Shown here in pieces: positions 24,844 through 48,326 of a stretch of 63,323 nt of DNA. The stretch lies in the IMG/VR virus record IMGVR_UViG_3300035661_000064, positions 1 through 63,323 of that record; one strand, written 5' to 3'. A model generated the notes under the pieces. It saw only the letters and a program-made list of their open reading frames with translations. It did not search any database and had not been told where the DNA came from. Within the stretch, counting starts at the first letter, position 1. Each line of letters opens with the position of its first letter. The stretch is from a virus (Duplodnaviria > Caudoviricetes). The position numbers and the translations under genes were made by a program.

Positions 24844-24887
24844 AACACCAAATTGATCTAACTTCAAACTTTTTAAGGCAGAATATC

Positions 24888-26771: not shown

Positions 26772-26792
26772 CTAGATAATTTACAAAGTCCG

Positions 26793-26804
26793 AACAATGA
26801 AATG
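26793..26804 (+). promoter_or_regulatory. Late promoter class AACA-N6-TG/TA (representative site)
   Basis: Also at 526(-), 5376(-), 5432, 6324, 8833(-), 8888, 11417(-), 20514(-), 21962(-), 22016, 24844, 34059, 38069, 43633(-), 43662, 44590, 47936(-), 52553, 63090(-); mostly upstream of structural genes. Confidence 0.8.
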
Positions 26805-26857
26805 AGAAAATTCATTGTTCGGACTTAATTTGTTCAACCCTCATGAGGATTTGATTT

Positions 26858-29800: not shown

Positions 29801-32800
29801 ACGTTTTATCCAACAGCATTCAATTCAACTATCTATAACGTTTACCGCCTTCAATGTAACGAATCTGAGACTAGTTCGCTTATTACTTTAAACTACACTA
29901 AGAAGATCTATTTCAACTCTTTAGTTCAAAGCCCATTTCCTCCTGAGTTTAAGCTTTACACTAAAACTATTCAGTTTACACCGTACAGCACACTTCCGTC
30001 TCCTGTTAACTTAGGAAATCTTGCTTTAGATATTCAATTTCAACGTGGTAGTAGTTTAACATGGAATCTAACTACAGGTGGCTCTGCTAGAAAAGTTAAA
30101 AACTCTCTAAACCAAACGTTCACAGGAGCACCTACAGTTCAGTACGTTGTAGGTCATACAATCAAATTAGTTCCTTACGTTTCTGATCCTGCAAACATAG
30201 CAGGTGGAACTGATTTAGACCGTTCTACTCCTCAAACAACTTATCAAACAGTCTATGAATTCAGGAATTCAGATAGTTCTGCACCTATTACTTCCTCTAA
30301 TCCATATGGTTTTGTAGGTGGTTCAGATTCAGCAAATTCTAGAACTCAATTAGGTGGAAGTGCTCAAGAGTTTGCTTACATTCCAGCTTCTACACCAGCA
30401 CAGAAAATAGGAATCATTCGTGTTTACTTTATGTATGCTAACAGAACATACGACACTGTAACTGGTTTACCTAATGATGGAAGTGACTATAAGTGGATAG
30501 ACTTTAAGTTTGAATTCTTTGATGAAGTCTTTTACTTCGCAACAGTAGAAGGAAATATAGAACGTTTTGATCCTAACACATTAACATACCCTTCTACAGG
30601 AAGCTTTCCTATTTATACGATTGGAGTAACAAATAACCCAACGTTTAGTGTATTTCAAACAGCAACGAGTGTGTTCAAAAGTGTATTGCTAGATTCTCCG
30701 TCAATGACATCTAAAACAGTAACAGTTCTTCCTGCACCAAACCCGTTTCATTCCGATAGTGGCTCATATACACGGTATGGAAAAAATGCGTCAAACGTTG
30801 ATTTCTACAGTGCTTCAGGTATTTATCCTGATTGGAGTTTCACTAATGGAATGACATTCAAGTTTGATACAACTAAGATTCAAACCGACTTTGACATTGC
30901 TCCTCAGTACAACGACAATAGTTTAACACAGTATAGTTTCTTTGGTTTGTACGGAACAATCTCATATCGTGGAGTAAACTACTCATTTTACTTCATGGAT
31001 AACACTAGTACATGGATTCATCTAGGCTATTTTAATCTTCAAGCAAGACCTGTTCCTGCTGATAACCGTGTTTTAACTAAAGATGCTAATAGCGGTTATG
31101 TTCCTCCTTACGACCGTCTTCAAACTAAATTTATCATCAACGCTCTTAAAGACAAACCCGAATATCGTTTAGGTGAAGAGATTGAACTAACTTGTGGCAG
31201 TTCACAAATCTATGGGAACACAAGTTGTTATATTTCAGGAGACTATTACGACACAATCTTCACTACTGGAAATAGTTACACGATAGGCGATTCAACTACT
31301 TTGACTTATGTTAAAGGTAAACTTGCAGATGGAACAGTTATAGAGTTTAATAGTTCTTCAACTGTTTATCCTATTTCAACTTATCAAACCGAAGTAGTTC
31401 TGAACAATTTGTTCAATGTAATACTAATCGAGATTCCCCCCGTTATTGAATTGTCATTAGACAATGGAGTAACATTTACATTTACTCCTGAAGAATTTGG
31501 TTTTAGTATGGGAATCTTTGCAACAGGCGATTTAGTAAATCCTATCAAAATTGAAAGTTTCGTCTTCTACATAACCCCTAACACTGCAGCAGGTCAAACG
31601 CTTTCTATCTCTAGCGATCCCACAAGTACTCCAGACATTCCGGGTGTATCATCTTACACTGCTGACTTAATCTCAGTTCCAAATCAACCATTTTGGAGTA
31701 GCAGTCCCAGTAGAATCTTTAATGGCTCATATGCTACAAGTCTAGATTCTATGAGTGTTGTTACTGAAACAGCAGGAGCGTATGTTCCCCCGTTTACTTC
31801 GCCTGTTGAAAATCTTTATACTAAACATTCAAGATACTTTACATTCAAGAAACTATGGCACAGCGAAATCTATTCTCATCTAAACTATGAACCTACAAAC
31901 TTGATTGATTATCACTACTTCATTCGTCCTGATAATCTTGTCTACATTAGAGGGTTTAATACATCTACTAATGCAGATGTTACTTCAGTATTAGCGTTTA
32001 ACGCAGGTCAATACATTCCTAGAGATAGTAGACTCAAAGTAACAAGTGCTGCCTTGATTGTTTATCCTGAAAAGGAAAATCAATCAAACACTGCTCGGAA
32101 TTACGGTTGTATAGTAGTATCGTTAATGGACTTTACTCGTTCATCAGGGTCTGATATTAAAGGCTTTATAGACTTCTGCTACATTCCTGTCTTAATTCCT
32201 ATTACAACAAACCAAAGTCTTTCAATAACAGTTGTAATGGATTCAGCTCAAACTTCTTCTGGATTAATTTCAGTAAAACCAATTTATCGAGTAGTGCACA
32301 AAACACTTGATCTCAATCCATCTTTGCTTTCTAATTGGAACTTAATATCTGGTGACAGTCTTGATACTAACGCTGTTTCAACTACATTTGCAATGAGTTT
32401 AACTGCTGTAAATAGCACAAAATTTGATATCACTGCAGCCGATAATCTTATCAACTTTCCTCTTTATAAGTTTATGGAACTTGTTAACGTTGATATTGCA
32501 TACATGCAAACAACACTAGGCGATGTTCAATCTGATTTGTATGGAAGATCATCAGTTCTAGTAGTTGGTTACAACACTGTCTTTATTCCATCAACAGTTA
32601 ATACAAGTACAACTTACTTCGGAAAGTCTTATTACAGTGGCTTCCTTACTACAATGAAAATTCGGTATGGTATTATTCCGGGAACGCTCACTCTCTTTAC
32701 AACTATGCAAGACCATTTGACAATTGATGCTTCAGAAACACAGCATAAGTACAAGCTTTACTTTACAGGAAACGTTGATTTCTCTATTGATGCTATGCCG

Positions 32801-34009
32801 TCTAAACATAACAAGCTTACAGGAACTGACGTTTTATACAGCTTTGAAGCGAAAGTAGCTTTGGATTATATGGAATCTACAAATGGTAAGTTATTACAAC
32901 CTTTCTTCTTTGATGGTTTTACACGTTTAGTCCCGTCTAGCATTTCAAACTTAGTTAGCTATGATAATAAGATGCTTTCTAACTGGTCTTTACATACTTC
33001 TTTCAAACGAGAAATTCCGGGTTCTATAAACTCTACTGCAGACTCTACTTTAAACTTTGCAGTTAGGTTGAAAGCACCTAGTGCAGCTTGGAATGGTACG
33101 TCGCAAGTAAATGATTATGTATGCCTATCTGATACACTTGTCGAAAGATGGCATCAGATGTCAGTCAATGGAGCATACTCTAGTACTACATTCGCTAACA
33201 CATTTGGAAACTACTTCCTTGGCTCTAGTGCAACATCGTCTGATCGTTTTGTGTTTAAAGCTCTTTCATCACACAGAACATCATGCTTTACATATAGTGT
33301 AGATGAATACTTAGACGAAGGCGGTGATACTAAGTTAGCTATTGAAACTCGGTTAATGAAATCTCTCACGTTAGGCGTTATTTATCCTGAAGCTAAGAAT
33401 GATATCACTAACACAAGACTAGCAAAGTTCTTTATAACTTCAAATGCTGGAGCATCAACTGCTTATGATTCGATTATCTTAACTCAACCCACAATTGAGA
33501 ATCTCTACGTTGTTAAACAGTATCCATTTAAAGGAACTATTGAAGGATTCCTTGAAAAAGCCTCTCCAACATTTGCTGTTATTAAGTCTAAAGACACTAG
33601 ACATTATTTAATGCTAGTAATGGTAGGTTCAATTCTGCGTATCTATGCTACAAATACAGAAATTCCATACAGGTATTATTCTGACATCAATAATACTTAC
33701 ATCTTCCGCGAAATGGATAAGTTTACATTTGTCAAAGAAATAGATCTATGGCTTGAATTAGCAATTCAAACAAAGAATCTTTTCTGGCGTTCTGAAACTA
33801 ATTCAGCATGGACAGGTGTTACTCCTAATCTTACTGGATTTAGAAACGTAATTGTTCAAACTGAAAAAGGCTATGTAGACTTAATTTCTACGGCTGTTTA
33901 TGGTGGAACTAGTTTAGGTAATCCTACTATAAAAGTCAAACGAGTTCGCTTTCCACTCATTAATTCTTATTCTTCTTCTTCTAATGTAGGAGCGCCTGCA
34001 AGCAACTAA
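26858..34009 (+). CDS. Giant tail fibre/adhesin-like virion protein (2383 aa)
   Basis: Ser/Thr/Asn-rich, Ig-like beta composition; late promoter 26793-26804; hairpin at 34021-34047. Confidence 0.6.
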   Translation: MPIKLAARYILPVVDMTRRNEFNIFDREMFISSDNRVFVRFENRDIEIPEASSDLKEVSGKYFYTVNDEEFEIIFPESNRVTSGLKLVGKPILSFMSGSGVNNVNHPNGSIVIVRVDALEDSLYTLEDVSFQYKVNGYSWVDDIEAFHIFEGAEGAMSGCAKTYVVRAVSPDGFHYSAETTITARRVTLESEVPSLDTIFSLPSSEENTLVSYSFYPNYISTNLFCSGHKTHLTLYQKVNGVYTSDYQANGIRFARVAGAPPEYFQGSPQTLIEDYLPSYPYNDWTMWNKIEIQSVPNENIEFYFEVEIVPNDPSEYSMVNNNPKKKFHYIATNTDLAPDLSNLKLFKDVFEWTAMNQLSENSNVTGFSIQGMDTTKNSYSIVSSTIAGVAGQPPTGFSILTPSVVGSAEATFSLTVQGTNNVSGLFSTKTFSIRVVNLAVNDASTITLNQIANSERYNDSSIFEFVFSIAGGTTESGNKRYSLSDLNVANMLRFEVSGQTPLIGSGVVNYTTLKFAAGVPITIQYQTSYVETNLGIPSMTVTLYDDSYSYLATSSKILSIRAHTLAQVQGLLINPDITTTTIGGIIQPNTYFREADVGIMYKRLNSSVTLPTDTKWRINESFPANFIEYLGALTSTTGLDTTSNNYYLPTIVERGGKTGYFGTDGLADSIKLDSASWIAKSRFVTWIGATVLVEIPSTRQTFMINTGLYLLDQNNNELNDNNNPIQESSMVQTDGTEFITCTDTGWKNYWKDRLNTAPNAPTIVESEENGVRYYTVTSKFRLRINNSDPSYSTIIVPSSYSGRLLSSYANDDLTANNVSSNISFTSQTNSVLNRRFLSFNFIPYNQDLTLTIKIRKSVFIDNSTESTIPIIFMVKENFEYIDQTPSVTPRVYQFFMNVPNPYFNIIKIDEEFSYYKIPTQGEPSILVINPSLDGIATAGLGKGNVYNFIFTPTYQLPWCPGQDLAELSMTMTGNDGSGSTTFYPTAFNSTIYNVYRLQCNESETSSLITLNYTKKIYFNSLVQSPFPPEFKLYTKTIQFTPYSTLPSPVNLGNLALDIQFQRGSSLTWNLTTGGSARKVKNSLNQTFTGAPTVQYVVGHTIKLVPYVSDPANIAGGTDLDRSTPQTTYQTVYEFRNSDSSAPITSSNPYGFVGGSDSANSRTQLGGSAQEFAYIPASTPAQKIGIIRVYFMYANRTYDTVTGLPNDGSDYKWIDFKFEFFDEVFYFATVEGNIERFDPNTLTYPSTGSFPIYTIGVTNNPTFSVFQTATSVFKSVLLDSPSMTSKTVTVLPAPNPFHSDSGSYTRYGKNASNVDFYSASGIYPDWSFTNGMTFKFDTTKIQTDFDIAPQYNDNSLTQYSFFGLYGTISYRGVNYSFYFMDNTSTWIHLGYFNLQARPVPADNRVLTKDANSGYVPPYDRLQTKFIINALKDKPEYRLGEEIELTCGSSQIYGNTSCYISGDYYDTIFTTGNSYTIGDSTTLTYVKGKLADGTVIEFNSSSTVYPISTYQTEVVLNNLFNVILIEIPPVIELSLDNGVTFTFTPEEFGFSMGIFATGDLVNPIKIESFVFYITPNTAAGQTLSISSDPTSTPDIPGVSSYTADLISVPNQPFWSSSPSRIFNGSYATSLDSMSVVTETAGAYVPPFTSPVENLYTKHSRYFTFKKLWHSEIYSHLNYEPTNLIDYHYFIRPDNLVYIRGFNTSTNADVTSVLAFNAGQYIPRDSRLKVTSAALIVYPEKENQSNTARNYGCIVVSLMDFTRSSGSDIKGFIDFCYIPVLIPITTNQSLSITVVMDSAQTSSGLISVKPIYRVVHKTLDLNPSLLSNWNLISGDSLDTNAVSTTFAMSLTAVNSTKFDITAADNLINFPLYKFMELVNVDIAYMQTTLGDVQSDLYGRSSVLVVGYNTVFIPSTVNTSTTYFGKSYYSGFLTTMKIRYGIIPGTLTLFTTMQDHLTIDASETQHKYKLYFTGNVDFSIDAMPSKHNKLTGTDVLYSFEAKVALDYMESTNGKLLQPFFFDGFTRLVPSSISNLVSYDNKMLSNWSLHTSFKREIPGSINSTADSTLNFAVRLKAPSAAWNGTSQVNDYVCLSDTLVERWHQMSVNGAYSSTTFANTFGNYFLGSSATSSDRFVFKALSSHRTSCFTYSVDEYLDEGGDTKLAIETRLMKSLTLGVIYPEAKNDITNTRLAKFFITSNAGASTAYDSIILTQPTIENLYVVKQYPFKGTIEGFLEKASPTFAVIKSKDTRHYLMLVMVGSILRIYATNTEIPYRYYSDINNTYIFREMDKFTFVKEIDLWLELAIQTKNLFWRSETNSAWTGVTPNLTGFRNVIVQTEKGYVDLISTAVYGGTSLGNPTIKVKRVRFPLINSYSSSSNVGAPASN

Positions 34010-34101
34010 ATAACTAGTCTAGTCACTGCCTTTACAGGGCAGTGACTTAGGCTGTTGCAACAAATATTTGAAATTTTCAGTTCCGAAAAAGGTTTTTACT
34101 A

Positions 34102-35256
34102 ATGACAAACATGTACAAGAATCTAGAGCTTCCTCTAGTCACGCAATCGTCTACTGAACAAGCCGACTTTACGTCTATAATGAATGGTGAAATGTTTTTA
34201 CTGAGAAACAGTGAAGACGATTCACATAAGCTTTGTTATAAACATCGTTTAACAGGTCAAGTTCTAACACTTAATAAGTCTCCATTTGATTCAAGTGGAG
34301 ACTTTGTTTCTGTTACGTTAAACGATGGAACAACTAAAGCTATTTCAAAAGACGAATCGTTGGGAGACACTAACTTTGATGATCTTACAATCTTAGCTAG
34401 TTCTCATTACAACTACAATACCTTTCCTAAATCGCTTTCATACTCGTTTGACAATTATTCTTCTGGAAGCAGACCACATTACACTTTCAGTGGATATCTG
34501 AGAGGTGCATATGACGCAATGGAATGGATCTATTACAATCCGGGTCGCATTCACTTCATGCGTGGTTTAAGTTTAAACGACAAAGCTGCGATCAAAGAAG
34601 GAAACTATGAACAACTATTTCGCTCTAGGACGTTGTTACAATACAAGTCACCTTTGACTTTTGCAAAAGAGTATCAATACGGGGAATCAGCTGGAGACAT
34701 CAACCGATTAGGTGCAGATCAAGCTTACTTTAATGCTTTACTAAGTGGAAGATCAATTGAGTTCTTTTCTCCAGAAACGTCTCACGATATAGAACTAACA
34801 GCAGATCACATTGATTGCTTTGGTAATCAGGGGAAAACTGCAATAAACACGATTCAGCTAACTTCAACGTGGTCATACAACGAAAGTCTTACATACTCAG
34901 CTGAAGTAGTTAACAAACCAGACGAAACTTTGACTTTCACTATTTCAAAGAACTCTTTCCCTTTAAAGTTTATCATCGACCCATCTCTTCCATCAACTAC
35001 TCCTATAGCATATGAACTGCGTTTTGAGTCGTTTATCTTCAGTTTGAATGGAGAAAACACGGTTTATTTTTCAAACGAAAATGTTCTACATTTTCCAGAA
35101 TGGAGTCTCTCAGTAAAACCTCATATTAATCTAGCTAAACCAATAAGAACACGATTAGCTGTAAGAATATTTAATCCAGGTCGTCCATCAAGGTATGCTT
35201 TCTTTTCAATTCCTATTACAATTGATAAAAGCTTTCTTACCAGCATTATTAACTGA
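34102..35256 (+). CDS. Tail fibre-associated protein
   Basis: N-terminal NGEMFL segment like neighbouring fibre genes; late promoter 34059-34070. Confidence 0.45.
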   Translation: MTNMYKNLELPLVTQSSTEQADFTSIMNGEMFLLRNSEDDSHKLCYKHRLTGQVLTLNKSPFDSSGDFVSVTLNDGTTKAISKDESLGDTNFDDLTILASSHYNYNTFPKSLSYSFDNYSSGSRPHYTFSGYLRGAYDAMEWIYYNPGRIHFMRGLSLNDKAAIKEGNYEQLFRSRTLLQYKSPLTFAKEYQYGESAGDINRLGADQAYFNALLSGRSIEFFSPETSHDIELTADHIDCFGNQGKTAINTIQLTSTWSYNESLTYSAEVVNKPDETLTFTISKNSFPLKFIIDPSLPSTTPIAYELRFESFIFSLNGENTVYFSNENVLHFPEWSLSVKPHINLAKPIRTRLAVRIFNPGRPSRYAFFSIPITIDKSFLTSIIN

Positions 35257-35276
35257 ACTGCAGGAAACAACTAATC

Positions 35277-36428
35277 ATGAAACCATTACTAGCTGAACCT
35301 TTAACAGCAAATAACGCAGTAATTCCTAGCAACCTTAAGAACGGTAGGTTTGTCTTAAAGCAAAGAGTCTTTACAGACAAAACTCTTTTCATTACTACAG
35401 GCGACTACATCTATAAGCCTATTAAAATGAATCGTACTTTAACTTTTGATTTCTTTGATAGAACAAATCCTAAGATCTATTTAAGGATAACAAACCCATT
35501 AGCAAACAAGCTTTCATTCAAGCTTATGACAAATGAAAACTTGTTTAAGAATGTGAACAGCAACATTGTGTACATTTCAGATGAAGAAGGTAATCACATT
35601 CCTATTGGTAGGGTTGATGAAGCTAAAAATCAACTTGTGATCAAATCATCTAATTTCAACGTAATCATTCCACCTGTCATAAAGTACCAGCCGCAAAATA
35701 ATGATTCTAATGCTAGTCTTTCAGCTATTGTTCTTAGAAAAGCCATATTTTCATCAGCTGTAAAAAGAGTAACAAATCTCAATCGGTTGAAGTACAAAAT
35801 TACTTATCCTAACGGACAAGTAGGCTTAACTATGGATTATACATCATTGTCGTATCTAACTAATGCATCAGTTCACTTAGGTACTTCTAAGATTGAAATC
35901 TATGCTTATGATGAACATTCAAACAAATCAGATACAATAGTAATCAATTCTAGATGTCTTCCTTTTGATACATTCTTAGAATCTACAAAGTATCAAAACT
36001 ATCCTTTTTGGAAGGTTAGTGATTCAGCTGCACCTGACAATACTCATGGCTCATACAGAGACGTATTAGTTGAAATAGAACTAACTGATTACAATTCTAG
36101 TTTCACGTATGATGTTAGTTTACCAGATCCTACATGCCCTTTCATTATTGACGATGTTTCTATTGTGTATGCTTATTCAAAACGTCTCATGCAAATCAGA
36201 GGAAGGTTTCTAGCATTTCGTGAATTTGTCATGGTAGCAGGAACATCTAACAACTTATTAGACCCTAACGATCAAGCAATTGAAGCAGGTCTTCAATATA
36301 TTCCTTCAGATGGCACATATTCAGATGTAGAAAATCAGATCATCTTTTTGATTAAGACAACAATTTCTCCTGATATAGCTTATCATTCATACACAAGTTT
36401 ACGCTATTGGAACTATCCAGTTGCTTAA
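35277..36428 (+). CDS. Tail-associated hypothetical protein
   Basis: Operon context, AGGA RBS. Confidence 0.45.
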   Translation: MKPLLAEPLTANNAVIPSNLKNGRFVLKQRVFTDKTLFITTGDYIYKPIKMNRTLTFDFFDRTNPKIYLRITNPLANKLSFKLMTNENLFKNVNSNIVYISDEEGNHIPIGRVDEAKNQLVIKSSNFNVIIPPVIKYQPQNNDSNASLSAIVLRKAIFSSAVKRVTNLNRLKYKITYPNGQVGLTMDYTSLSYLTNASVHLGTSKIEIYAYDEHSNKSDTIVINSRCLPFDTFLESTKYQNYPFWKVSDSAAPDNTHGSYRDVLVEIELTDYNSSFTYDVSLPDPTCPFIIDDVSIVYAYSKRLMQIRGRFLAFREFVMVAGTSNNLLDPNDQAIEAGLQYIPSDGTYSDVENQIIFLIKTTISPDIAYHSYTSLRYWNYPVA

Positions 36429-36456
36429 CTTTAACATTCAAAGGAATCTAATCACA

Positions 36457-37086
36457 ATGGCAATTCAAAACAACGTTCAAGCTTTCATAGACTCTGTTTT
36501 TCAGATGGCACAGCCTGCTGTATTAGTGTCTATTACTAATGAAGTCAAAGAAGTAGCTTCTGTTATTTTTGATCTTTCTATTAAAGTTCCGGCATTAGAA
36601 TCATTTGGTGGAACTACTTATGAAATTTACAAAATAACACCTATCTACACATTTAATCCTATTACGTCTGTTTACTCAGGATATGATCTTTCAATAAATG
36701 ACGATAAACAAGTCACAATGTTTATCAAAGGAGTGAAGATTCCAAACCAGTTGTTATTGAAATCAGTTGCAGCAAACTCGAATAAGTACTTAGTAGATCA
36801 AGTTAAAACAAAGCTTTCTTCTTCTTTGTTTGTATACCTTCTTCCACCTGTCTCACAGGCTAGCATATTTGAGATTTTTGCATGGGTACGAATGGTTAAC
36901 TTTGACGGTCAATATGATTCTGACTCAGCTAAAGTTCAATCATTGATTCCATTATTCATTTCGCATGTAAATGTAATTCGGTCATTTGAATCTGAAAAAG
37001 ATGATGCAGTGCTAGCAGAAAAGATAAACGAAGCTGTTTCAACATTTACAATGGCAGTCAATCAAAAATTGTCTGAAGAAGGGTAA
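36457..37086 (+). CDS. Hypothetical protein (tail cluster)
   Basis: AAGGA RBS before ATG 36457. Confidence 0.5.
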   Translation: MAIQNNVQAFIDSVFQMAQPAVLVSITNEVKEVASVIFDLSIKVPALESFGGTTYEIYKITPIYTFNPITSVYSGYDLSINDDKQVTMFIKGVKIPNQLLLKSVAANSNKYLVDQVKTKLSSSLFVYLLPPVSQASIFEIFAWVRMVNFDGQYDSDSAKVQSLIPLFISHVNVIRSFESEKDDAVLAEKINEAVSTFTMAVNQKLSEEG

Positions 37087-37091
37087 TTCTT

Positions 37092-38066
37092 ATGGCAACT
37101 CCCCAATCAAACAAGTTTAATCCGCTCTATGTTAAACGTGGTGGATATGAGGATTCTAAAGAGATTGTATTTGGTGAAGGTGAGCTGATCTGGCTTACTG
37201 ATAGAAGCAAACTGAAAATGGGGAATTCTCAGACTAAAGGTGGAGTTGATTTTGTAACAGAAGAAATCACTAGGCGTTTAGTTGACTTAAAGATTCCTCT
37301 TAACAATAGAGAGTTTCGTTATACAAACTCTGAAGTTGAAATGGTTACACCAACAACACTAGAACTCTATACAATTTCATTTAGACGAGATATTGACAAA
37401 GTCTTTGTTCTTCTTAAGTATCCGTCAAACAATATCAACAATTGGTATGAGCTAGATTCACTTCTTCTGTACGGAAAGGAATCAATCTTCAAACCTTCAA
37501 TTACAGGAAATAGTTGGTATAGGGTTGCTAATCTACCATACGGCAGTGGTTCATGCACAGTTAGACTCTTTTCAAATAGTCCGTTAAATCGTTTTAGCAT
37601 CACTGCTTCTTTCTCTGTTTTTAACTCAAGAAAGATTATCTTGAACAAAATACTAGAGTCAGACATTTCTGAAACTATTACTATCTCATCTATCAAGTTA
37701 ACAAATAATCAAATGATATCTCAAGAAGGAGCTAACATAGAAATCTTCTTCAAAAACGATGCTTATGAAGTTTTCTGCATAGTTGAAACAGATGATGTTC
37801 TTCCTACATGGAATATCAAAAGCTTTGAAACTGCCTATACTACATTCAGCGACTCAACTGAAATAGTTGTTACGCCTAATGTGGGATTTGTTTCAACTTC
37901 AAATATTGTAGAAGGAAACAAAATGCTTAGTGAGAAGTATGTTTCATCTTCTTATGTAAACTTTGACACTGACAAGTTCAAAGAAAATCTAGCTCTTAAA
38001 GGTTTAGCAGTTGACAACCAAGGTAGACTTACTTTAAACGGACAAGTTGTTTTTACTCCTGTCTAA
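37092..38066 (+). CDS. Tail fibre protein with Mtd-N/hyaluronidase-like N-terminal anchor
   Basis: VKRG...GEGELIWLTDRSKLKMGNSQTKGG. Confidence 0.65.
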   Translation: MATPQSNKFNPLYVKRGGYEDSKEIVFGEGELIWLTDRSKLKMGNSQTKGGVDFVTEEITRRLVDLKIPLNNREFRYTNSEVEMVTPTTLELYTISFRRDIDKVFVLLKYPSNNINNWYELDSLLLYGKESIFKPSITGNSWYRVANLPYGSGSCTVRLFSNSPLNRFSITASFSVFNSRKIILNKILESDISETITISSIKLTNNQMISQEGANIEIFFKNDAYEVFCIVETDDVLPTWNIKSFETAYTTFSDSTEIVVTPNVGFVSTSNIVEGNKMLSEKYVSSSYVNFDTDKFKENLALKGLAVDNQGRLTLNGQVVFTPV

Positions 38067-38110
38067 AAAACAATGAATTGAAACCCCCTTTAAAGTACAG
38101 GTAACTTCCT

Positions 38111-38413
38111 ATGTTTAAACCTATGAATTTGTCAAACGCTAATGATGAAGGCGTTAGAGTAGCTAAAGCTAAAGTTGGTTTAGAAGTTGATAGAATCTCG
38201 TTTGTTCCTGAAGCAGGCGTTCTTCTTTATACATCTGATAACAAGAATCTCTATATTGGTGATGGGGTAACTCCGGGTGGAATCCTATACAAAGGTGATT
38301 TAGACGAACACTTTCTAGATTCTGTTTTGAATGACCCAGATCTAATTAATCAAATTGCAAATGCTATTAACATCAGCCTCAAAATAGGTAATATTGATGG
38401 TGGTAGGTTTTAA
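38111..38413 (+). CDS. Small Mtd-N-like tail protein
   Basis: PEAGVLLYTSDNKNLYIGDGVTPGG and C-terminal IDGGRF; late promoter 38069-38080. Confidence 0.65.
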   Translation: MFKPMNLSNANDEGVRVAKAKVGLEVDRISFVPEAGVLLYTSDNKNLYIGDGVTPGGILYKGDLDEHFLDSVLNDPDLINQIANAINISLKIGNIDGGRF

Positions 38414-38542
38414 TTGTATAGTGGTAGCCCTTAAACAAGGCTATCACTTTTTTGCTAGAAATTTCAAACATATATAAATTGAATAGTGAAATACTTAATT
38501 CACTAAACCCCCTTATTAACTGTGATCCAAGAGGTATATCAC

Positions 38543-39094
38543 ATGGCTACTATTACAATCACTTCTACTCAAAATGCTCGCGCCACTGCTTTGGTAAACA
38601 GCGTTGGTTCCTCTGTTGCTAGTGTTGCAACAGAGCTGAACATCTCAGAACGTACCCTGATGGGAACCGTAACAGAGTTGCGGAAATTAGGCTTCGTCTT
38701 CACTCGTGAAAGTGGCTTAATCTCTGTTGCAAAATGGGGTGATGGTGTTGAGGTGGTAATCGCTACCACTGCAACCACTACCACTGCAGTCGCAGCTCCT
38801 GTCTCTGGTGCAGCTCCTGTAGAAGCAGCGGCAGTACTGAATTGGAATCTTTACAGTAAGCGTCAAGGAACGCTTATTACATTCTCATCGACGAACAAGT
38901 TAGGAGATATCCTTACTGCAATCAGTCTCAAGCTTGCCGTCTTCAGCGGCACGGCGGCAACTGTGAGTCGTAAAGCTCTCAACGAGAACAACTTCGTTCA
39001 GATCAACATGACTAATGTTGATTTAAATGAAGTCATCCCAGTAGGAACAACCTTTCAATACGATATTGCAGGCAAACAAGTGTCTGGTGGCTAA
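38543..39094 (+). CDS. HTH-ubiquitin-like fusion protein ending in Gly-Gly
   Basis: N-terminal wHTH (SVASVATELNISERTLMGTVTELRKLGF), Thr/Ala/Pro linker, ~85-aa C-terminal domain ending KQVSGG-stop; GAGGT RBS supports ATG 38543; early promoter 38466-38477. Confidence 0.7.
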   Translation: MATITITSTQNARATALVNSVGSSVASVATELNISERTLMGTVTELRKLGFVFTRESGLISVAKWGDGVEVVIATTATTTTAVAAPVSGAAPVEAAAVLNWNLYSKRQGTLITFSSTNKLGDILTAISLKLAVFSGTAATVSRKALNENNFVQINMTNVDLNEVIPVGTTFQYDIAGKQVSGG

Positions 39095-39166
39095 ACTATA
39101 GCCTTAAACGGGACAGGGGAGTAATCTCCTGTCCCAAACTATTTAATAATTTTTGGAGTACATCTT

Positions 39167-39916
39167 ATGCGCAACGGTTCTGGTTTGAAAGAAGTAGTAG
39201 TTAGAATCCCTGAAAGCTTCCATGAAGCGTTCAGCTTAATTGGGAAGACTACTCAGAACGAATACGCCATGTTCTACAACTACAGTGTTACACATACTGT
39301 AACAAATAATATTGGGCTAGACCCTAATAAAGTCGATTTAGACCGAGACAATGCTATCATCATTGACATTCACGAAGATTTTGCGTTCCCCAAACAAACT
39401 TCTTCCGTGGGTGTATTCTACATCGATGAAAGTGAAAATCAAAACATCATGGAAAACTACAACGGTGCGATACACCGTCATCCGAAAGGTGTAAGAACCT
39501 TTTCAAATCATGACTACAAAGTAGTTAACACGGCATTTCAACTTTCTCTCATTGGAATTCCTGAAGAAAACTATTACTACGGCGAACTAAGCTTGAAGCT
39601 TGAAGGCTTTCCATTTGCCATTCCAGTTAAAGTAACACGTTTTGAAATTTCTAAAGAAACTGAAAAGACAGTTTACTTTAATGGAACGTGGTTGCTTGAA
39701 TCGGAATTCAACCAAGAGGTATCAGATCGACTTAAACCCATAGTTCTTCATGTTAATCCTGTAGTTCATGCTAACGGAGTAGATGGAAGCAAAAAATCAG
39801 CTTTCTTAGGAAAAGTCAAAAGGGGGAGAGTAGCAGCGTCAGACCCCAATTACTATTTTGAACCGTATGATGATGCCGAACTTTCTCTGCTTGAACAATC
39901 AAAGAATCTCAAGTAA
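39167..39916 (+). CDS. JAB/MPN+ (JAMM) metallopeptidase
   Basis: E32 (QNEYAM) and H103-R-H105-x7-S113-x2-D116 (HRHPKGVRTFSNHD). Confidence 0.85.
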   Translation: MRNGSGLKEVVVRIPESFHEAFSLIGKTTQNEYAMFYNYSVTHTVTNNIGLDPNKVDLDRDNAIIIDIHEDFAFPKQTSSVGVFYIDESENQNIMENYNGAIHRHPKGVRTFSNHDYKVVNTAFQLSLIGIPEENYYYGELSLKLEGFPFAIPVKVTRFEISKETEKTVYFNGTWLLESEFNQEVSDRLKPIVLHVNPVVHANGVDGSKKSAFLGKVKRGRVAASDPNYYFEPYDDAELSLLEQSKNLK

Positions 39917-39933
39917 TTTAATTAAGGGGAACT

Positions 39934-39961
39934 AATCAATCAACTTTAAAGTTGATTGATT
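39934..39961. repeat. Perfect 28-bp palindrome between the JAB and E2-like genes
   Basis: AATCAATCAACTTT|AAAGTTGATTGATT; followed by a terminator hairpin at 39964-40001. Confidence 0.85.
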
Positions 39962-40056
39962 TTAAGCAGGTAAGTATCATTACTTATCTGCTTCTTTTTT
40001 TAAGCATATATTATTTATCTGACCCTATTAAATAATCTAACACCGGAGTAAAACTG

Positions 40057-42261
40057 ATGACATCTTCAACTGATAGCTTTTTTACAAACTATGTAAAAAG
40101 TCAATATGAAACTAATCTTCCTCCATTTAATTCAACTTCGTCATCTGCTATAAATCTGTTTATTAGAAATAGTTTGCTAGCAGATTCCAACAATTCCGTA
40201 TTTGACAAATTTGAAGAACTCGATATTCGTGATCGCTATCAATTACTTGCGCACCATTCCAGTTTAGCAATGATTAAACGTAAACAAATGGCAGATTTAT
40301 TCAACCAATTGAGACTTGAATTTGAAAATGACTTTAACGTGTATCATTTCATAGATGAGCTTTTTGAATTCTTTGCTAAAGGTGAAATTCTGACAGTTGA
40401 TGAAATACGAAACGAAATCAGTTCGTTCAGCCATGTCAATAACAATTCTGAAAACGAACTGATTGACATGCTAAACGAATTGAACGAAACAAAGCAGACT
40501 TCAAATGATCTATCAAACAGCATTCAAGGAACAATCAACGAAGCAGCCTCTTCAGTTAAAGAAAATGCTAAGAAGTTGAATGAACGAAATCTTAAGCATT
40601 ACCGTTTAAACAAACTTAACAAGCTTGCTCTTCAACCTATGGCAACTTTAAAGAAAGCTGCATCTTCAACAATCTTAGAAACATTTCTTCAAGAGAACAT
40701 CTCTAACGTTTTAATTGCACAATCTTCTGTTTTATCTGACTCTTCAAACCCATCTGATACTGTAAAGAAACTAACTTCATCTGTTGCATTAGGATTGACT
40801 TTTCAATTCAAGAAACGTTTTGAAGAAGACCCTTTAAATTCTCCTGAGCTAATGTACCAAAGCAAGTATGGAGACTCTTCATGGCATTTTATGTTAAAAC
40901 TGTCACCTAACTTTGCAGGTAAACCTGTTAGAAAAATTCGAGTTCAAATTAATCCGTTATCAGGAGTAAACGAATCTGAACTGAACATTCTCATTCCTGA
41001 GTCTTTAATACCTGATGAATCTATTATGTGGCATAAGCCTACTTATGTTCTGTTTGAATTAAACAACGTTTTTATGAGCAAGAAGAAAAACATTTCTTTC
41101 AAGTTCTTACCTAAAGAAGCGTTAGGAGGCACAGGTGAAAATCTTCCTTACATCAATGCTTTGGTTTCAGTGTTCACTTCTTATTCAGAAGAGGATAGAC
41201 TGAAAGTTCTTGCTATCTTCTACTCATTTCAATTCTATTCATCGTTTGCCAGTAAAGAGTTTAGAACTCATCTATTCACCGTTAACAACTTTATACTATT
41301 CTTAGATCAAGTAACTGAAGGCAACTCATTTCGTTATTCATTCGGAAAAATGGATGAAGTCTTCAATAAATACTTTAATCGAGACTCTAAAGAGTTTGTC
41401 ACGCTTTTAAATGACTTCTTTAATGTCAAAGTTAGAAATTACTTGCATTATCCTGCAAACATTATGAACGTAAACCGTTACACAGATGAAGCTACATGCA
41501 TCGATGACAACTATTTGCTTTCACTAGCAGATAGGGCGCACGCTCCATTGAAGAAATTTGGTGTAGGTGTTGAGTTTGATGAATTTGTTACAGCAACTAA
41601 CTCTGAAAGTTTGTTTAAATCTACTGTTCTAACTCATTTTGATAGACTAGGAAAAATCTACTCCAATCCACATATTTTCAGAACTGGCATGTATAGTGAT
41701 CCTGAAAAGTTCAAAACTTCATTAGACACGCTGATTGAACGTTGTTTAAACGATGACTATCGAGGAACATCTGGTCTGTTTGGAAGCGGAGTTTGTAATG
41801 GTACGTTAGACCTTACTAACTTAGAATTAGCATCAAAGAAGATGAAGATATCAGGAATGTTAGAACAGAACTTTGGTGTCGGATACCTTAACTCTTTAGC
41901 CACTCCTATCAAACTCATAAACGCTTATCCGCCTTTAATAAATCTTCTTTACGACTTTATTCTTGAACAATTCTTAATTGCTTCTAATGTAGATGAATTT
42001 AAACACTACATGCTAAATGAGTTTGGTTGGAATGAGTTAAAACATCAAGGAATCGATGTAGCTGTTCGGTTCAATTACTATATCTCAGATACGCTAATTA
42101 ACAATCTTGTATCAAGTTCAAATGGAATTCCAAATGCTCATCTTCAATCGTTTCAAGCGTTTACAAAGTTCTTTGATAGTAGAGAAAGTTCGCTTCAAGG
42201 TTTAATTCTACACTACTTGTATGAAGAAAGTAAAGAAACTGGAAACGCAGTAATCTTGTAA
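40057..42261 (+). CDS. Coiled-coil protein with putative C-terminal E2 (UBC-like) domain
   Basis: NPHIF (aa 537-541)...GSGVCNG (C580)...LEQNFGVGY resembles the HP(N/H)I...G.iC.G...N pattern of prokaryotic E2s; adjacent to Ubl and JAB; early promoter 40002-40013. Confidence 0.5.
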   Translation: MTSSTDSFFTNYVKSQYETNLPPFNSTSSSAINLFIRNSLLADSNNSVFDKFEELDIRDRYQLLAHHSSLAMIKRKQMADLFNQLRLEFENDFNVYHFIDELFEFFAKGEILTVDEIRNEISSFSHVNNNSENELIDMLNELNETKQTSNDLSNSIQGTINEAASSVKENAKKLNERNLKHYRLNKLNKLALQPMATLKKAASSTILETFLQENISNVLIAQSSVLSDSSNPSDTVKKLTSSVALGLTFQFKKRFEEDPLNSPELMYQSKYGDSSWHFMLKLSPNFAGKPVRKIRVQINPLSGVNESELNILIPESLIPDESIMWHKPTYVLFELNNVFMSKKKNISFKFLPKEALGGTGENLPYINALVSVFTSYSEEDRLKVLAIFYSFQFYSSFASKEFRTHLFTVNNFILFLDQVTEGNSFRYSFGKMDEVFNKYFNRDSKEFVTLLNDFFNVKVRNYLHYPANIMNVNRYTDEATCIDDNYLLSLADRAHAPLKKFGVGVEFDEFVTATNSESLFKSTVLTHFDRLGKIYSNPHIFRTGMYSDPEKFKTSLDTLIERCLNDDYRGTSGLFGSGVCNGTLDLTNLELASKKMKISGMLEQNFGVGYLNSLATPIKLINAYPPLINLLYDFILEQFLIASNVDEFKHYMLNEFGWNELKHQGIDVAVRFNYYISDTLINNLVSSSNGIPNAHLQSFQAFTKFFDSRESSLQGLILHYLYEESKETGNAVIL

Positions 42262-42276: not shown

Positions 42277-42305
42277 TTCCCTTAGCCTTCATAGGGCTAA
42301 GGGAA
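42277..42305. terminator. Bidirectional hairpin (CCCTTAGCC family)
   Basis: TTCCCTTAGCC-TTCATAG-GGCTAAGGGAA between convergent genes. Confidence 0.7.
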
Positions 42306-42314
42306 TACAGTGTT

Positions 42315-43604
42315 CTATTTTTTACCTATTGTCAGTTTAATAGGTTTAAAGCTTGTTAGAATGTCAATCTTGCTTGTTTTAACACTCATGTCATGAAACG
42401 ACTTCAAAGAAGTATTCAAAACAGCAGAACCGATTTTAGTAGAGAGAGACCCTGCTAACTTGCTACCAAACTCATACATAGCATCACCTGCACACATGTT
42501 ACAGATTTTGTCACTAGTGCAGAAGAGAGGAGAACGAATCTCAATTGTCTGACCGACTAAAGAATCTAGAACGTCTTTCTTTAAGAGAACTAATTTATTG
42601 CTAATCTTAGCAAATCTAAGATGATACAACATTGCATCTTTCTTAGTCAAGTTAACTTTATAGAGTCTCTTTGTTCCACAATCAGACTTCCTTTCGTCTA
42701 GTACTACATGACCTAAAGAAGCATTAAGAGACTTAACAATATAACCACCTATCTGCGTTCCTACAGCTCGGTTGAAGCTAGCTGTAGTAAGCATATCATT
42801 ATATTTCCACAAGTCTTCTTTAGGTACTCCATCAACTAAATTAGCAGTAGAAATGTTCATTTGAGAAAAGTCATTACTTCTAGGAATCGCTCCTCTAGCC
42901 ATAGACGTATTCTTGTAATTGTTACCAAAGCCTTTAGAAGCTCCACTGTTATAGATAGCCATACCCGGAGTGTCCATCTTAGTTAAAGTAGTTTCAGCTA
43001 AGTTAACTAAGTCTTTTTCAACAGCTATGTAAGCATTCACGTCATTAGAAGATATAGTTTCAGCATGTTTCTTGAATGCTGCTTTTTTAGCAGCTTCAAC
43101 TTCTTTCAATGGTCTGATGGTATCAATATCAAGACTGAGACTCATGAAGCTAGCTATACCAAATCCTAACCAATGCCATCTATCAATGAACTCATGCATA
43201 ATCTTATTGTCTATTTCATCTTCAACATAAGCTAATGCAATCCTATCTTCAATAAACCCTTTAGTAGATTTATCAAAAGGTTTGTTGATGTAACCAAATA
43301 TTCGTTTAAGGACAGGATCAAAGAAAGAAAAGTAGTTAAAGACTATTCGCCCTAAGGTTGTTTCAATCTTAGTTTCAGCTATTGTAAAGCCTAAGGAAGC
43401 TAATTCTTCTTTGGTAAAAAAGATAGGATACTCGTTGTTGTACTTTTGCTTATCAGATTCAGAATATGAGAAGCTGTCAAGAAGAAATTGAAGAGTAATC
43501 TTATGAGTAGGATCTGGATTTCCTTCATCGGGAAGTATAGATTTGATAAACTCTTGTTTCTGTGCTTCAGTCACAGGAGTTTTATTTCGAATATCAGTTG
43601 CCAT
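42315..43604 (-). CDS. Phage multisubunit RNA polymerase beta' C-terminal fragment (probably virion RNAP)
   Basis: TTLGRIVFN, SGASKG, TQIGGYIVKSL (bridge helix), DCGT, IRSPLFC...ICNMCAG, LKSFH (trigger loop); a late promoter at 43633-43644 suggests the virion-packaged enzyme. Confidence 0.9.
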   Translation of the reverse strand: MATDIRNKTPVTEAQKQEFIKSILPDEGNPDPTHKITLQFLLDSFSYSESDKQKYNNEYPIFFTKEELASLGFTIAETKIETTLGRIVFNYFSFFDPVLKRIFGYINKPFDKSTKGFIEDRIALAYVEDEIDNKIMHEFIDRWHWLGFGIASFMSLSLDIDTIRPLKEVEAAKKAAFKKHAETISSNDVNAYIAVEKDLVNLAETTLTKMDTPGMAIYNSGASKGFGNNYKNTSMARGAIPRSNDFSQMNISTANLVDGVPKEDLWKYNDMLTTASFNRAVGTQIGGYIVKSLNASLGHVVLDERKSDCGTKRLYKVNLTKKDAMLYHLRFAKISNKLVLLKKDVLDSLVGQTIEIRSPLFCTSDKICNMCAGDAMYEFGSKLAGSLSTKIGSAVLNTSLKSFHDMSVKTSKIDILTSFKPIKLTIGKK

Positions 43605-44120: not shown

Positions 44121-44570
44121 ATGTACAACAAACAACGTATTGCAGACACTCTGTTGATTTTAGCAAGTAACAACGCATCGGTGGTAATGTCAGGGTCAGC
44201 GGCATTAGTGTTAAAGGATATCATTCCGTACGCGAATGACCTAGATATGTTTACGTTTGATAATTTTTCATTTTGGAAAGTCGTAGAGCTTTTCAAACTG
44301 AAAATCATTGAAAACACGGATATCACGACAAAGTCGTCCCTGTACGCGCATATCGAAACTAAAGATACCGACATCGAGATTTCATTTAACGATGAAACTT
44401 CGACCGATCCAATCGGTCTATTCTTAGAACAGTTTGCAAAACCGGAGAGACCTTACGTCACCTCCTTAGAGGAGACTATTAAGTTCTACGAGGAGGTCAT
44501 CAAGACTACTCGGAAAGACCCTACCAAGTTTGAAAATCGAATTCAGTTAATTAAAGACCATCTGAAATAA
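44121..44570 (+). CDS. Minimal Pol-beta-superfamily nucleotidyltransferase
   Basis: VVMSGSAAL...NDLDMF (GS-x-DxD) and later DIEIS; early promoter 44045-44056. Confidence 0.7.
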   Translation: MYNKQRIADTLLILASNNASVVMSGSAALVLKDIIPYANDLDMFTFDNFSFWKVVELFKLKIIENTDITTKSSLYAHIETKDTDIEISFNDETSTDPIGLFLEQFAKPERPYVTSLEETIKFYEEVIKTTRKDPTKFENRIQLIKDHLK

Positions 44571-45684: not shown

Positions 45685-45802
45685 GTTAATTACAAGGGTT
45701 TAGGTTAAGAAATAATCAGTGATTTATTGCTTGAACCTATTCAATTAATATATGTTTGAAAAAAAGAAGAACCCTAAGGCTCTTCTTCTCCAATAAGTAC
45801 GG

Positions 45803-46093
45803 CTACCAACCGTACTTGTTTACCCCCACCTGTTTGAGGAAGAATTCTTCCACGTCCTGATATCCGTCAATATCAGCGGCTGTCCAATCACCAGCGTAGG
45901 CGAAATAGAGGAGTTCTTGGTGGCCTTCTTGCCCAACGTCGATTTTCACAGTGGCGACTAAGTAGCCATTGATTGTATCGGCAAAACCACTCATCAACTT
46001 CTGCATTTCCCCCCAACTCGAAATCTCGACTGGTAGGGTTGCTCTCAAAGCTCCAATTGCAATGTGGATCTTGCGAACGGTAGAAGTAGTCAT
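45803..46093 (-). CDS. Small early protein, paralog A
   Basis: GGAGG RBS; MTTSTVRKIHI...EEFFLKQVGVNKYGW. Confidence 0.8.
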   Translation of the reverse strand: MTTSTVRKIHIAIGALRATLPVEISSWGEMQKLMSGFADTINGYLVATVKIDVGQEGHQELLYFAYAGDWTAADIDGYQDVEEFFLKQVGVNKYGW

Positions 46094-46175
46094 GATACAC
46101 CTCCATTAAATGAATGAAGTCTTACATCTCGAAAGGAACGCTCCTGTATGTATCACCTAAATAATATATGTTTGA
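46091..46175 (-). promoter_or_regulatory. Early promoter plus structured 5' leader, copy 1 of 3
   Basis: CAAACATATATTATTTAGGTGATACATACAGGAGCGTTCCTTTCGAGATGTAAGACTTCATTCATTTAATGGAGGTGTATCATG (- strand). Confidence 0.8.
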
Positions 46176-46196
46176 TTTCAGAGGGTTCGTAGAAGT

Positions 46197-46300
46197 TTAG
46201 CTACACTGAATGCCATGTAAAGTAATAGCGCTTTACGATAACGAAGATTAACACTCTCTTTAACATCATCTCCATACTGTAAACGAATGAAGTATTCAAG
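46197..46300 (-). pseudogene. Duplicated 3' fragment of the 384-aa gene with a 16-bp deletion
   Basis: Matches 46751-46870; deletion lies between ACTGAA direct repeats. Confidence 0.85.
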
Positions 46301-46357
46301 TAATGTATGCTTGAAAAAAAGAAGAACCCTAAGGTTCTTCTTCTCCAATAAGTACGG

Positions 46358-46648
46358 CTACCAACCGTACTTATTGATCCCAACCTGTTTGAGGAAGAAC
46401 TCCTCTACAGTTTGGAAACCTTCAATGTTAGCAGCGCACCAAGCGCCGCCATAACTGAAGAATAACAGCTCACGATGGGGTTCTTGTTTGAACCCCACGT
46501 CCATCTTTACAGTGGACACTGACGACCCATCGATTGACGAATTGTTCAACAGGGTCTGCAATGCAGACCAACTGGCGATTTCAATCGGCAATTCAATCGT
46601 CATTGAACCACTGTTGATGTGGATCTTGCGAACGGTAGAAGTAGTCAT
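46358..46648 (-). CDS. Small early protein, paralog B
   Basis: GGAGG RBS; MTTSTVRKIHI...EEFFLKQVGINKYGW. Confidence 0.8.
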   Translation of the reverse strand: MTTSTVRKIHINSGSMTIELPIEIASWSALQTLLNNSSIDGSSVSTVKMDVGFKQEPHRELLFFSYGGAWCAANIEGFQTVEEFFLKQVGINKYGW

Positions 46649-46729
46649 GATACACCTCCATAAATGAATGAAGTCTTACATCTCGAAAGGAAAGCTTCTA
46701 TATGTATCACCTAAATAATATATGTTTGA
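46646..46729 (-). promoter_or_regulatory. Early promoter plus structured 5' leader, copy 2 of 3
   Basis: Near-identical to 46091-46175. Confidence 0.8.
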
Positions 46730-46750
46730 TTTCAGAGGGTTCGTAGAAGT

Positions 46751-47986: not shown

Positions 47987-48217
47987 CTACACGACTTTGT
48001 TAGTCATGTAGAAGTCGAATGCTGCTTGAGCGTTCGATTCATTTAGTTCGCGATGTTCATTAAGTGAACTAATGCCGTAACCCAAGCGGGCTACTGCATT
48101 AGTGTATCCGCTCCAAATCCCTTTTTCAGGGATTGTTACTTTTCCACCTGACGGCATCATAACTGTGTAGCAAGCTTTTTTAGAGCCTGCTACTTTGATG
48201 AATACTTTCTTTGCCAT
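47987..48217 (-). CDS. Small hypothetical protein (76 aa, MAKKVFIKV...)
   Basis: AGGAG RBS before ATG 48217; the longer 111-aa ORF call is unlikely. Confidence 0.7.
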   Translation of the reverse strand: MAKKVFIKVAGSKKACYTVMMPSGGKVTIPEKGIWSGYTNAVARLGYGISSLNEHRELNESNAQAAFDFYMTNKVV

Positions 48218-48257
48218 TTGTATAATACTCCTATGATATAAAGGGGGGGAAAGAGAA

Positions 48258-48326
48258 TTAGCAGCGTTTCCAGCTGCGTATGATTTGCGTGGTTGGCATA
48301 GGGGGTAATCTAGGAAATCCAAACAT
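48258..48326 (-). CDS. 22-aa micropeptide MFGFPRLPPMPTTQIIRSWKRC
   Basis: Starts at the ATG of leader copy 3 (GGAGGTGTATCATG). Confidence 0.5.
   Translation of the reverse strand: MFGFPRLPPMPTTQIIRSWKRC

Follow-up and report, generated by a model that had tools for sequence, protein, structure and literature searches.

A candidate ubiquitin-like protein with a winged helix-turn-helix and a free diglycine end, encoded beside a JAMM peptidase in an uncultured jumbo phage

The DNA analyzed here is the complete IMG/VR record IMGVR_UViG_3300035661_000064 (the window: 63,323 bases, estimated completeness 25%, GC content 34.5%), in which two adjacent genes on the plus strand, at 38543-39094 and 39167-39916, form a small cassette. 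The first gene is predicted to encode a ubiquitin-like protein (Ubl) that carries an N-terminal winged helix-turn-helix (wHTH) and ends in a free Gly-Gly, and the second a JAB/JAMM metallopeptidase. Our leading reading, held tentatively and at slightly less than even likelihood, is that the pair constitutes a conjugation-competent wHTH-Ubl together with its cognate JAMM isopeptidase, probably as an early accessory cassette, the E1-type enzyme being encoded elsewhere. We regard the finding of the cassette as real; the interpretation placed on it would depend on one predicted fold and two motifs, in proteins without relatives.

The predicted modifier and the adjacent peptidase

The coding features of the cassette are as follows (ORF, open reading frame; SD, Shine-Dalgarno sequence).

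38543..39094, + strand: gene for the wHTH-linker-Ubl protein, 183 amino acids, ending SGG (ORF; stop codon at 39092-39094)
38582..38743, + strand: winged helix-turn-helix, residues ~14-67 (profile matches)
38762..38833, + strand: linker rich in T, A and P, residues 74-97 (sequence)
38834..39091, + strand: probable beta-grasp (ubiquitin-like) domain with the 8-residue tail AGKQVSGG (Atlas model; AlphaFold order, at low confidence)
39167..39916, + strand: JAB/JAMM metallopeptidase gene, 249 amino acids (SD GGAG at 39155-39158; JAMM motif)

A GG end is found in only one of the 90 ORFs of at least 60 amino acids in the window, and this is the Ubl ORF. The strict JAMM motif HxHx7SxxD (HRHPKGVRTFSNHD, residues 103-116) is the sole match to H.H.{7}S..D in the six frames of the window, and it falls in the co-directional ORF that begins 72 nt downstream of the Ubl ORF, with H103, H105, S113 and D116 encoded at nt 39473-39514. 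The occurrence of a GG end next to the sole JAMM gene is unlikely by chance. An earlier reading made from the sequence alone (the sequence-only reading) had called the downstream neighbor a JAB, and the motif confirms ORF 39167-39916 as a predicted JAMM/JAB peptidase, for which Glu32, within NEYAMF upstream of the motif, is the candidate catalytic glutamate. PADLOC JAB models matched weakly over the motif (E 0.02; E 0.006 in a six-frame search). The ESM Atlas model of the JAB protein (predicted local distance difference test, pLDDT, 0.63) aligns with viral clusters at template-modeling (TM) scores of 0.55-0.61, and one of these clusters qualifies as Prok-JAB; the Atlas neighbors of the protein are viral clusters of 185-301 amino acids with feature scores of 0.94-0.96, some with Prok-JAB and one named ubiquitin family protein. 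A PDB sequence search with the JAB protein returned nothing, and a complex prediction of JAB with Ubl residues 95-183 and Zn scored 0.07 and gave no verdict.

The Ubl gene starts at the ATG at 38543, with the SD AAGAGG (38529-38534) 8 nt upstream; an alternative GTG at 38522 has no SD. At the N terminus of the protein, the HTH_11-like helix-turn-helix proposed from the letters alone was recovered as a winged form, since four libraries (PADLOC, Pfam, NCBIfam and PDB) gave concordant matches on one segment, residues ~14-67. PADLOC returned a CARF/Csa3-type wHTH (PDLC01850, E 2.9e-6) and two CasR models (~1e-3), NCBIfam returned Sul12a (1e-3) and Csa3 (4e-3), and Pfam returned nine HTH families including CggR_N, TrmB and HTH_11, every one below its cut-off, while the PDB sequence search found Csa3 chains weakly (E~1). 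The order of elements in the AlphaFold2 model, which is of low confidence, is helices at 13-19, 25-31 and 36-47 followed by strands at 62-65 and 69-78. The T/A/P linker and the C-terminal domain of about 85 residues ending in SGG, which the same reading had described, are likewise present, the domain spanning 86 residues (98-183) with the end KQVSGG.

Residues 98-183 probably adopt a beta-grasp (ubiquitin-like) fold, as judged from a predicted structure. The ESM Atlas holds a model of exactly the Ubl protein (mean pLDDT 0.69), and all 10 of the 10 structural neighbors listed for residues 95-183 carry beta-grasp domains (TM by query 0.54-0.66), among them USP Ubiquitin_3, RA, UBX, Rad60-SLD, DIX, the Crinkler N-terminus, TGS and others. 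The closest Pfam-named feature clusters in the Atlas are Rad60-SLD/ubiquitin and TmoB; the structural and the feature neighbors together count as one source of evidence. In the low-confidence AlphaFold2 models the domain runs strand-strand-helix-strand-strand-strand, with a helix of 15 residues, an order that is compatible with a beta-grasp and no proof of one. A PDB sequence search with the Ubl protein gave rows only at E of at least 0.1. Of the Ubl identity claimed at the outset, the free GG tail and the wHTH-linker-domain-JAB architecture stand, whereas the beta-grasp fold is unconfirmed and has the Atlas model as its one source.

In the scheme that we propose, an E1-type enzyme from outside the cassette, acting alone or with an E2, would adenylate and transfer the free GG; the gene for this enzyme would lie in the host or in those three quarters of the phage genome that the window does not cover. 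The entire wHTH-Ubl would be attached to target lysines, to which the wHTH would bring DNA contact or protein contact, and the zinc JAMM/JAB would remove the wHTH-Ubl or edit conjugates, with no maturation step. The JAB would have no role in maturation because the GG of the Ubl is already exposed. This logic, by which the sequence-only reading had made the JAB a deconjugase and not a maturase, fits the contrast with type II Bil, in which, according to the accessible text of 10.1101/2023.09.26.559546, as many as nine residues come after the conserved Gly and are removed by the JAB BilC. Ubl-JAB pairs are described as functional units in bacteria and phages in the sections available from PMC1779556, and bacterial Ubls as carrying varied N-terminal domains in those available from 10.1101/2024.11.21.623966.

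We consider it rather unlikely that, beyond this, the wHTH-Ubl is made early and borrows an external conjugation enzyme, either jamming and reversing host antiviral conjugation or covalently tethering targets to a winged-helix, possibly DNA-binding, handle, as the sequence-only reading had suggested. Either version (decoy plus deconjugase, or tethering) would, if true, put ubiquitin-like conjugation to its first use on the phage side beyond tail assembly. Until now, such conjugation in bacteria has been taken either for a weapon of the host (Bil, type II CBASS) or for an oddity of lambda-type tail assembly; a ready-to-activate wHTH-Ubl with a stand-alone JAB would, if true, mean that the phage side uses the same chemistry, especially if the cassette is early. 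With two small proteins (183 and 249 amino acids), the system is directly testable in vitro.

Transcription signals and composition of the cassette

The non-coding features in and around the cassette are as follows.

38420..38454, + strand: terminator-like hairpin (stem 38420-38448) followed by T6, at the end of the upstream gene block (-14 kcal/mol, z -2.36, 6 of 200 shuffles as good)
38466..38485, + strand: promoter-like motif AAACATATATAAA-(6N)-A, a variant form of both the recurrent 13-mer and the early promoter of AR9 (motif scan)
38521..38543, + strand: inverted repeat around the SD (-5.7 kcal/mol, z +0.22, 108 of 200 shuffles fold as well; not significant)
39110..39135, + strand: GC-rich hairpin between the genes, 11-bp stem, GUAA loop, no U-tract (-21.8 kcal/mol, z -4.87, 0 of 200 shuffles as good)
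39934..39961, + strand: AT-rich perfect 12-bp hairpin or palindrome, unique in the window (z -3.45)
39964..40001, + strand: intrinsic-terminator-like hairpin and T-run, at the end of the cassette (terminator scan)
40002..40021, + strand: next copy of the promoter-like motif, AAGCATATATTAT-6N-G, before a gene of 734 amino acids (motif scan)

With a terminator-like hairpin and a promoter motif upstream and a terminator (39964-39993) downstream, the Ubl-JAB pair looks like a separate accessory unit, one that is probably early. The upstream hairpin at 38420-38448, which has a 9-nt loop, was missed by the terminator scan. The motif at 38466-38485 belongs to a recurrent promoter-like 13-mer, AAACATATATTAT-(6N)-G, whose core AACATATATTA, with at most one mismatch, occurs at 17 sites in the window against 3.3 expected (0 of 100 shuffles as good); the sites include 6336, 8918, 11431, 18211, 38467, 40003, 44046, 45746, 46162, 46716 and 48395. 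A G stands at the seventh base after the 13-mer in 13 of the 17 copies, and 15 of the 17 lie directly upstream of an ORF and are aimed at it, the exceptions being those at 44949 and 58675. The genes behind the motif comprise ribonucleotide reductase (RNR), the ligase, a helicase operon, an AntA-like gene and several small unknowns, a set that fits an early class. The layout is that of the AR9 early promoter, both in its consensus, given in the accessible part of PMC5312081 as AAATATATATTAT-(6N)-G and as used by the virion RNA polymerase, and in the annotated AR9 sites. We judge it somewhat more probable than an even chance that the cassette's own copy is active as a promoter. The recurrent AR9-like motif offers an initial map of transcription in the uncultured phage.

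The motif also bears on gene starts elsewhere in the window. Two minus-strand copies, at 4651-4661 and 20478-20488, end 6 nt before the listed starts (GTG 4645 and ATG 20472), such that the predicted +1 G coincides with the G of the listed start codon; the real starts of the ligase and AntA-like genes are probably further downstream.

A hairpin enclosing the ribosome-binding site (TGTGAT/ATCACA) had been proposed for the Ubl gene. The inverted repeat exists, but it folds no better than shuffled sequence. The GUAA hairpin at 39110-39135, proposed at the same time, is real and indeed lacks a U-tract. The window contains about 12 gene-end hairpins, and the missing U-tract is not special, because several of them are likewise without one. 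It is plausible that this hairpin yields an excess of Ubl over JAB; it would probably lower JAB output relative to Ubl through a partial transcript stop or through 3′-end protection of a shorter transcript. The palindrome at 39934-39961 was considered as an operator and rejected, as no other copy of its half-site with <1 mismatch was found and as it directly abuts the terminator. An Rfam scan of 38300-40100 gave nothing above the gathering score.

Another hairpin, CCCTTAGCC-N7-GGCTAAGGG, is present three times in the window (8179-8203, 42279-42303 and 62689-62713; 0 expected by shuffling), every copy being located where a gene ends or where two genes converge; the three may serve in common as a terminator or as a processing element.

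The Ubl ORF had also been noted to be GC-richer than its neighbors, and this holds (0.46 versus 0.32-0.37 in 22 other genes), although the ORF is not unique in this respect. The GC content at third codon positions (GC3) is 0.40 for the Ubl ORF and 0.35 for JAB, compared with 0.282 pooled over the other 50 ORFs (binomial P 2.8e-4 for Ubl), which places the Ubl ORF 4th of 52, behind three small ORFs. All of the five highest-GC3 ORFs, the Ubl ORF included, lie behind the promoter-like motif. A foreign origin, suggested by the high GC3 in the 22-gene comparison, was dropped once all 52 ORFs had been scored, three being higher and several similar; high GC3 is not by itself a sign of foreign origin, because it is common to a class of small motif-driven genes.

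A tandem duplication of ~555 bp at 45738-46870 contains paralogous ORFs of 96 amino acids (45803-46093 and 46358-46648) with near-identical leaders, and the leader recurs a third time ahead of 47987-48322; the GC3 values of these ORFs (0.54-0.58) are the top ones of the window. The ORF at 44121-44570 (149 amino acids, GC3 0.48) lies behind a perfect copy of the motif and has no Pfam match; its GS...DLD stretch presumably recalls minimal nucleotidyltransferases.

The stretch is present at low depth in four DNA runs from mat and sediment metagenomes, one of which may be the source sample; no RNA run was listed among the four. Variants were compared using contigs of three further samples, and the changes reported are those listed, with 24 further differences beyond them. 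The Ubl gene has two listed changes, both in the linker (S88T and A90V), and none in the wHTH or the C-terminal domain; the C-terminus is covered by contigs of runs X2 and X3, which have no listed change there. The JAB core (residues 79-144) has six synonymous listed changes and one changed codon (V81), and the C-terminal part of JAB has eight amino-acid changes. This pattern of substitutions lends mild support to the possibility that both genes are under constraint.

Contrary evidence, relatives and rival explanations

A number of results weigh against the reading of the cassette as a modifier with its isopeptidase. Models for E1 (ThiF) and E2 (UQ_con, Prok-E2_A and Prok-E2_B) found no match in the six frames of the window, which holds ~25% of the genome, and both enzymes were absent from Pfam scans of 42 ORFs in the window. 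The C-terminal domain (98-183) has no sequence match in Pfam, PADLOC, NCBIfam or PDB, and AlphaFold2 run without an alignment performed poorly (pLDDT 33.5 for the whole Ubl protein and 43.0 for residues 92-183); Foldseek with the 92-183 model found no match in the PDB at E <= 0.001, the few beta-grasp rows at E 1-3 being weightless. The wHTH is not basic, with 6 K/R versus 6 D/E in residues 1-73, and the Pfam JAB and Prok-JAB models do not match the JAB protein even at E 10. The cassette's copy of the promoter-like motif deviates, with one core mismatch that is shared only with the copy at 58675 and with A instead of G at +1, and the AR9 virion polymerase can, according to PMC5312081, be sensitive to single promoter deviations. 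Finally, no homolog of the Ubl or JAB protein was detectable in any collection searched.

These searches comprised a tblastn comparison of the Ubl and JAB proteins with 50,697 phage records, which found nothing (for the JAB core, nothing even at E 10), a word-index search of 5.8 G proteins, which returned only self for the Ubl and for the JAB protein, and IMG/VR scans with Ubl, JAB and the RNA polymerase neighbor, which revealed no relative; two metagenome scans gave the same result. Phmmer with the Ubl protein against 1.84 G representatives returned self and two repeat proteins, both of which were rejected as inflated by their repeats. Neighboring proteins (734, 2383 and 324 amino acids) have no phage match, and AR9 gp258/gp259 show no similarity to JAB or to the 734-amino-acid protein. 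The JAB model, which does detect the JAB protein in its own record, found no match in any of five related jumbo phages (AR9, phiR1-37, Madawaska, LPJP1 and JD-Fnp4), indicating that the cassette is accessory and not core.

Among the alternatives, the one that survives best, while still unlikely, is counter-defense, in which the phage would carry just the Ubl and the deconjugase half of a ubiquitin-like defense pathway of the Bil/Bub/CBASS type; the JAB would strip host Ubl or host cGAS-like conjugates from their targets, and abundant phage Ubl with its ready GG would compete as a decoy for the host E1/E2. This would be in keeping with a cassette of Ubl and JAB without E1 or E2, with its moron-like combination of an early-type promoter motif and its own terminators, with the lack of a JAB match in all five related phages and with the GC3 of both genes, which exceeds the pooled value; host Bil systems, moreover, attach Ubl to phage tail proteins, as described in the abstract of 10.1101/2023.09.04.556158. 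However, apart from the weak PADLOC JAB match at E 0.02 there is no similarity to Bil, Bub or Cap3 proteins, and the high GC3 is common to other small motif-preceded genes and need not imply foreign origin. A search of literature listings found no phage Ubl or JAB acting against Bil or CBASS.

It is less probable again that the C-terminal domain is not a Ubl. The protein would then be an early transcription or DNA-organizing wHTH factor with an unrelated oligomerization or binding domain, and the GG and the JAB would be coincidental, or the JAB would have another substrate. The wHTH is indeed the only domain with sequence support, it weakly matches the model of the chromatin protein Sul12a, and no Ubl-family sequence model matches the protein, but all of the Atlas structural neighbors listed are beta-grasp, and this alternative would leave to chance the placing of a GG end beside the only JAMM gene. 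As a sub-case, the domain could be an Fn3-like beta-sandwich, given that the best non-self match (E 7e-9) is a type IX-secreted protein with Fn3-like repeats. We rejected this match as a chance one inflated by repeats: the protein has eight near-identical repeats of 98 amino acids, and the profile of a single repeat scores 20.9 bits on residues 80-136, corresponding to ~E 36 when scaled to 1.8e9 proteins. The aligned residues cover the first 57 of the 98 repeat positions, the second half of the repeat being unaligned (-0.8 bits), and both AlphaFold runs place the 15-residue helix where a beta-sandwich has none.

A tail-assembly pair like gpI (Ubl) and gpK (JAB) of lambda/T1, acting without an E1 in tail-tip assembly, is improbable. 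The known example of a Ubl with C-terminal Gly that is accompanied by a JAB but by no E1 comes from phage tail clusters, on the evidence of PMC1779556. Large orphan ORFs, one of them 2383 amino acids long, form the block that precedes the cassette, with a weak Mtd_N match (E 7e-4) in the ORF immediately upstream, and residues 125-175 weakly match a PHROG 'tail assembly protein' (E 0.026). Yet the domain order is reversed relative to TAPI, in which the Ubl is N-terminal and followed by TAPI-C, Pfam scans found no NlpC/P60 domain, and neither PHROGs nor phages gave a match for the upstream block, leaving the tail context unproven. The cassette is, furthermore, separated from that block by a terminator and has an early-type motif, and the five related phages have no JAB match.

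In sulfur-carrier pathways, of which CysO-Mec+ is an example, a JAB releases the adduct. That the GG protein here is ThiS/MoaD-like, thiocarboxylated by an E1-like enzyme and released from its adduct by the JAB, is the least probable of the alternatives: a GG end with a JAB is a signature of such pathways in the accessible part of PMC1779556, and the Atlas feature neighbors include TmoB and other small beta-grasp proteins, but the window showed no gene for ThiF/MoeB, a rhodanese or sulfur metabolism, a wHTH fusion would have no role in such a pathway, and ThiS and MoaD models do not match.

Source phage and comparison with known systems

A split RNA polymerase beta' fragment at 42315-43604 (minus strand) has 40% identity to Bacillus phages AR9 and PBS1 and 33-37% to Yersinia phiR1-37 and Staphylococcus jumbo phages. 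Other genes that could be named in the window are those for an NAD-ligase, the RNR small subunit, a divergent DnaB, a RecA-like ATPase and an SF1 helicase and, on the virion side, a prohead protease and two phiKZ-type virion proteins. These identities and the recognizable gene set thus assign the window to an uncultured jumbo phage that is of the AR9/phiKZ kind and distantly related to AR9, PBS1 and phiR1-37. Neither IMG/VR nor the JGI metagenomes nor the GenBank phages yielded a close relative, an 8-kb megablast query gave no match among phages, and no tRNA genes were found in the window.

The region 22095-38413 is a 16-kb co-directional block that contains large orphan ORFs, the 2383-amino-acid ORF among them, with no PHROG, Pfam or phage match beyond weak ones to RVT_1 (E 0.0055) and Mtd_N (E 7e-4). 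A diversity-generating retroelement, suggested by these two matches, was rejected, as no repeat of the TR/VR (template/variable repeat) type was found; a tail-fiber role for the block would be a guess. Separately, a degenerate tandem repeat with units of 48 nt and shorter lies at 7996-8169 within the overlapping ORFs 7687-8163(+) and 7916-8287(-), and encodes a Ser/Asp-rich low-complexity stretch.

Phage Ubl-JAB pairs and N-terminally extended bacterial Ubls are already published. Literature listings revealed no jumbo phage in which an early-type cassette combines a wHTH-Ubl fusion, its GG free, with a JAB that stands alone; the Bil/Bub supplementary tables may list HTH-fused Ubls, and the jumbo-phage survey PMC7824862 does not mention JAB, Ubl or beta-grasp in its main text. 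The best match to residues 14-67, as set out above, is the wHTH of the Csa3/CasR group of CARF regulators (PADLOC, NCBIfam TIGR01884 and, weakly, PDB 2wte, 6w11 and 6wxq), although in those regulators the wHTH is C-terminal to a CARF sensor, whereas here it is N-terminal and there is no CARF domain. In type II CBASS, with Cap2 (E1-E2) and Cap3 (JAB), a JAB reverses conjugation through a protein's C-terminus, as is proposed for the JAB here; the conjugated protein, however, is the CD-NTase and not a beta-grasp Ubl, and neither Cap2 nor a CD-NTase was seen here.

Type II Bil (BilA, BilB, BilC and BilD) pairs a JAMM peptidase with one beta-grasp Ubl that has a reactive Gly, which is the arrangement predicted for the cassette, and the catalytic residues of BilC, Glu33 and Asp106, are placed similarly to the candidate Glu32 and Asp116 here. 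By contrast, it is a bacterial operon of four genes (Ubl, E2, JAB and E1) and not a phage pair without E1 or E2, and its Ubl needs processing by BilC where the GG is already terminal here; the proteins show no sequence similarity (these comparisons draw on the accessible text of 10.1101/2023.09.26.559546). The Bil/Bub Ubls with N-terminal extras have one beta-grasp domain after a different N-terminal domain, an order like that predicted here. In the main text of 10.1101/2024.11.21.623966, those N-terminal domains are disordered N/G-rich regions, coiled coils or DUF1508, and the terms 'helix-turn-helix', 'winged' and 'DNA-binding' do not occur.

The closest published phage precedent is the TAPI/TAPK pair of the lambda type. 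In lambda/T1, according to the available sections of PMC1779556, a phage Ubl with a C-terminal glycine is encoded beside a JAB, with no E1 or E2 nearby, which resembles the predicted pair here. The architecture differs in that TAPI has its Ubl at the N terminus, followed by a Gly-rich linker and TAPI-C, whereas the Ubl here is C-terminal with a free GG and is preceded by the wHTH; TAPK joins its JAB to NlpC/P60, whereas the JAB here stands alone. TAPI and TAPK, moreover, lie inside a tail operon by the central tail fiber gene, while the present pair has its own early-type motif and flanks without a tail match.

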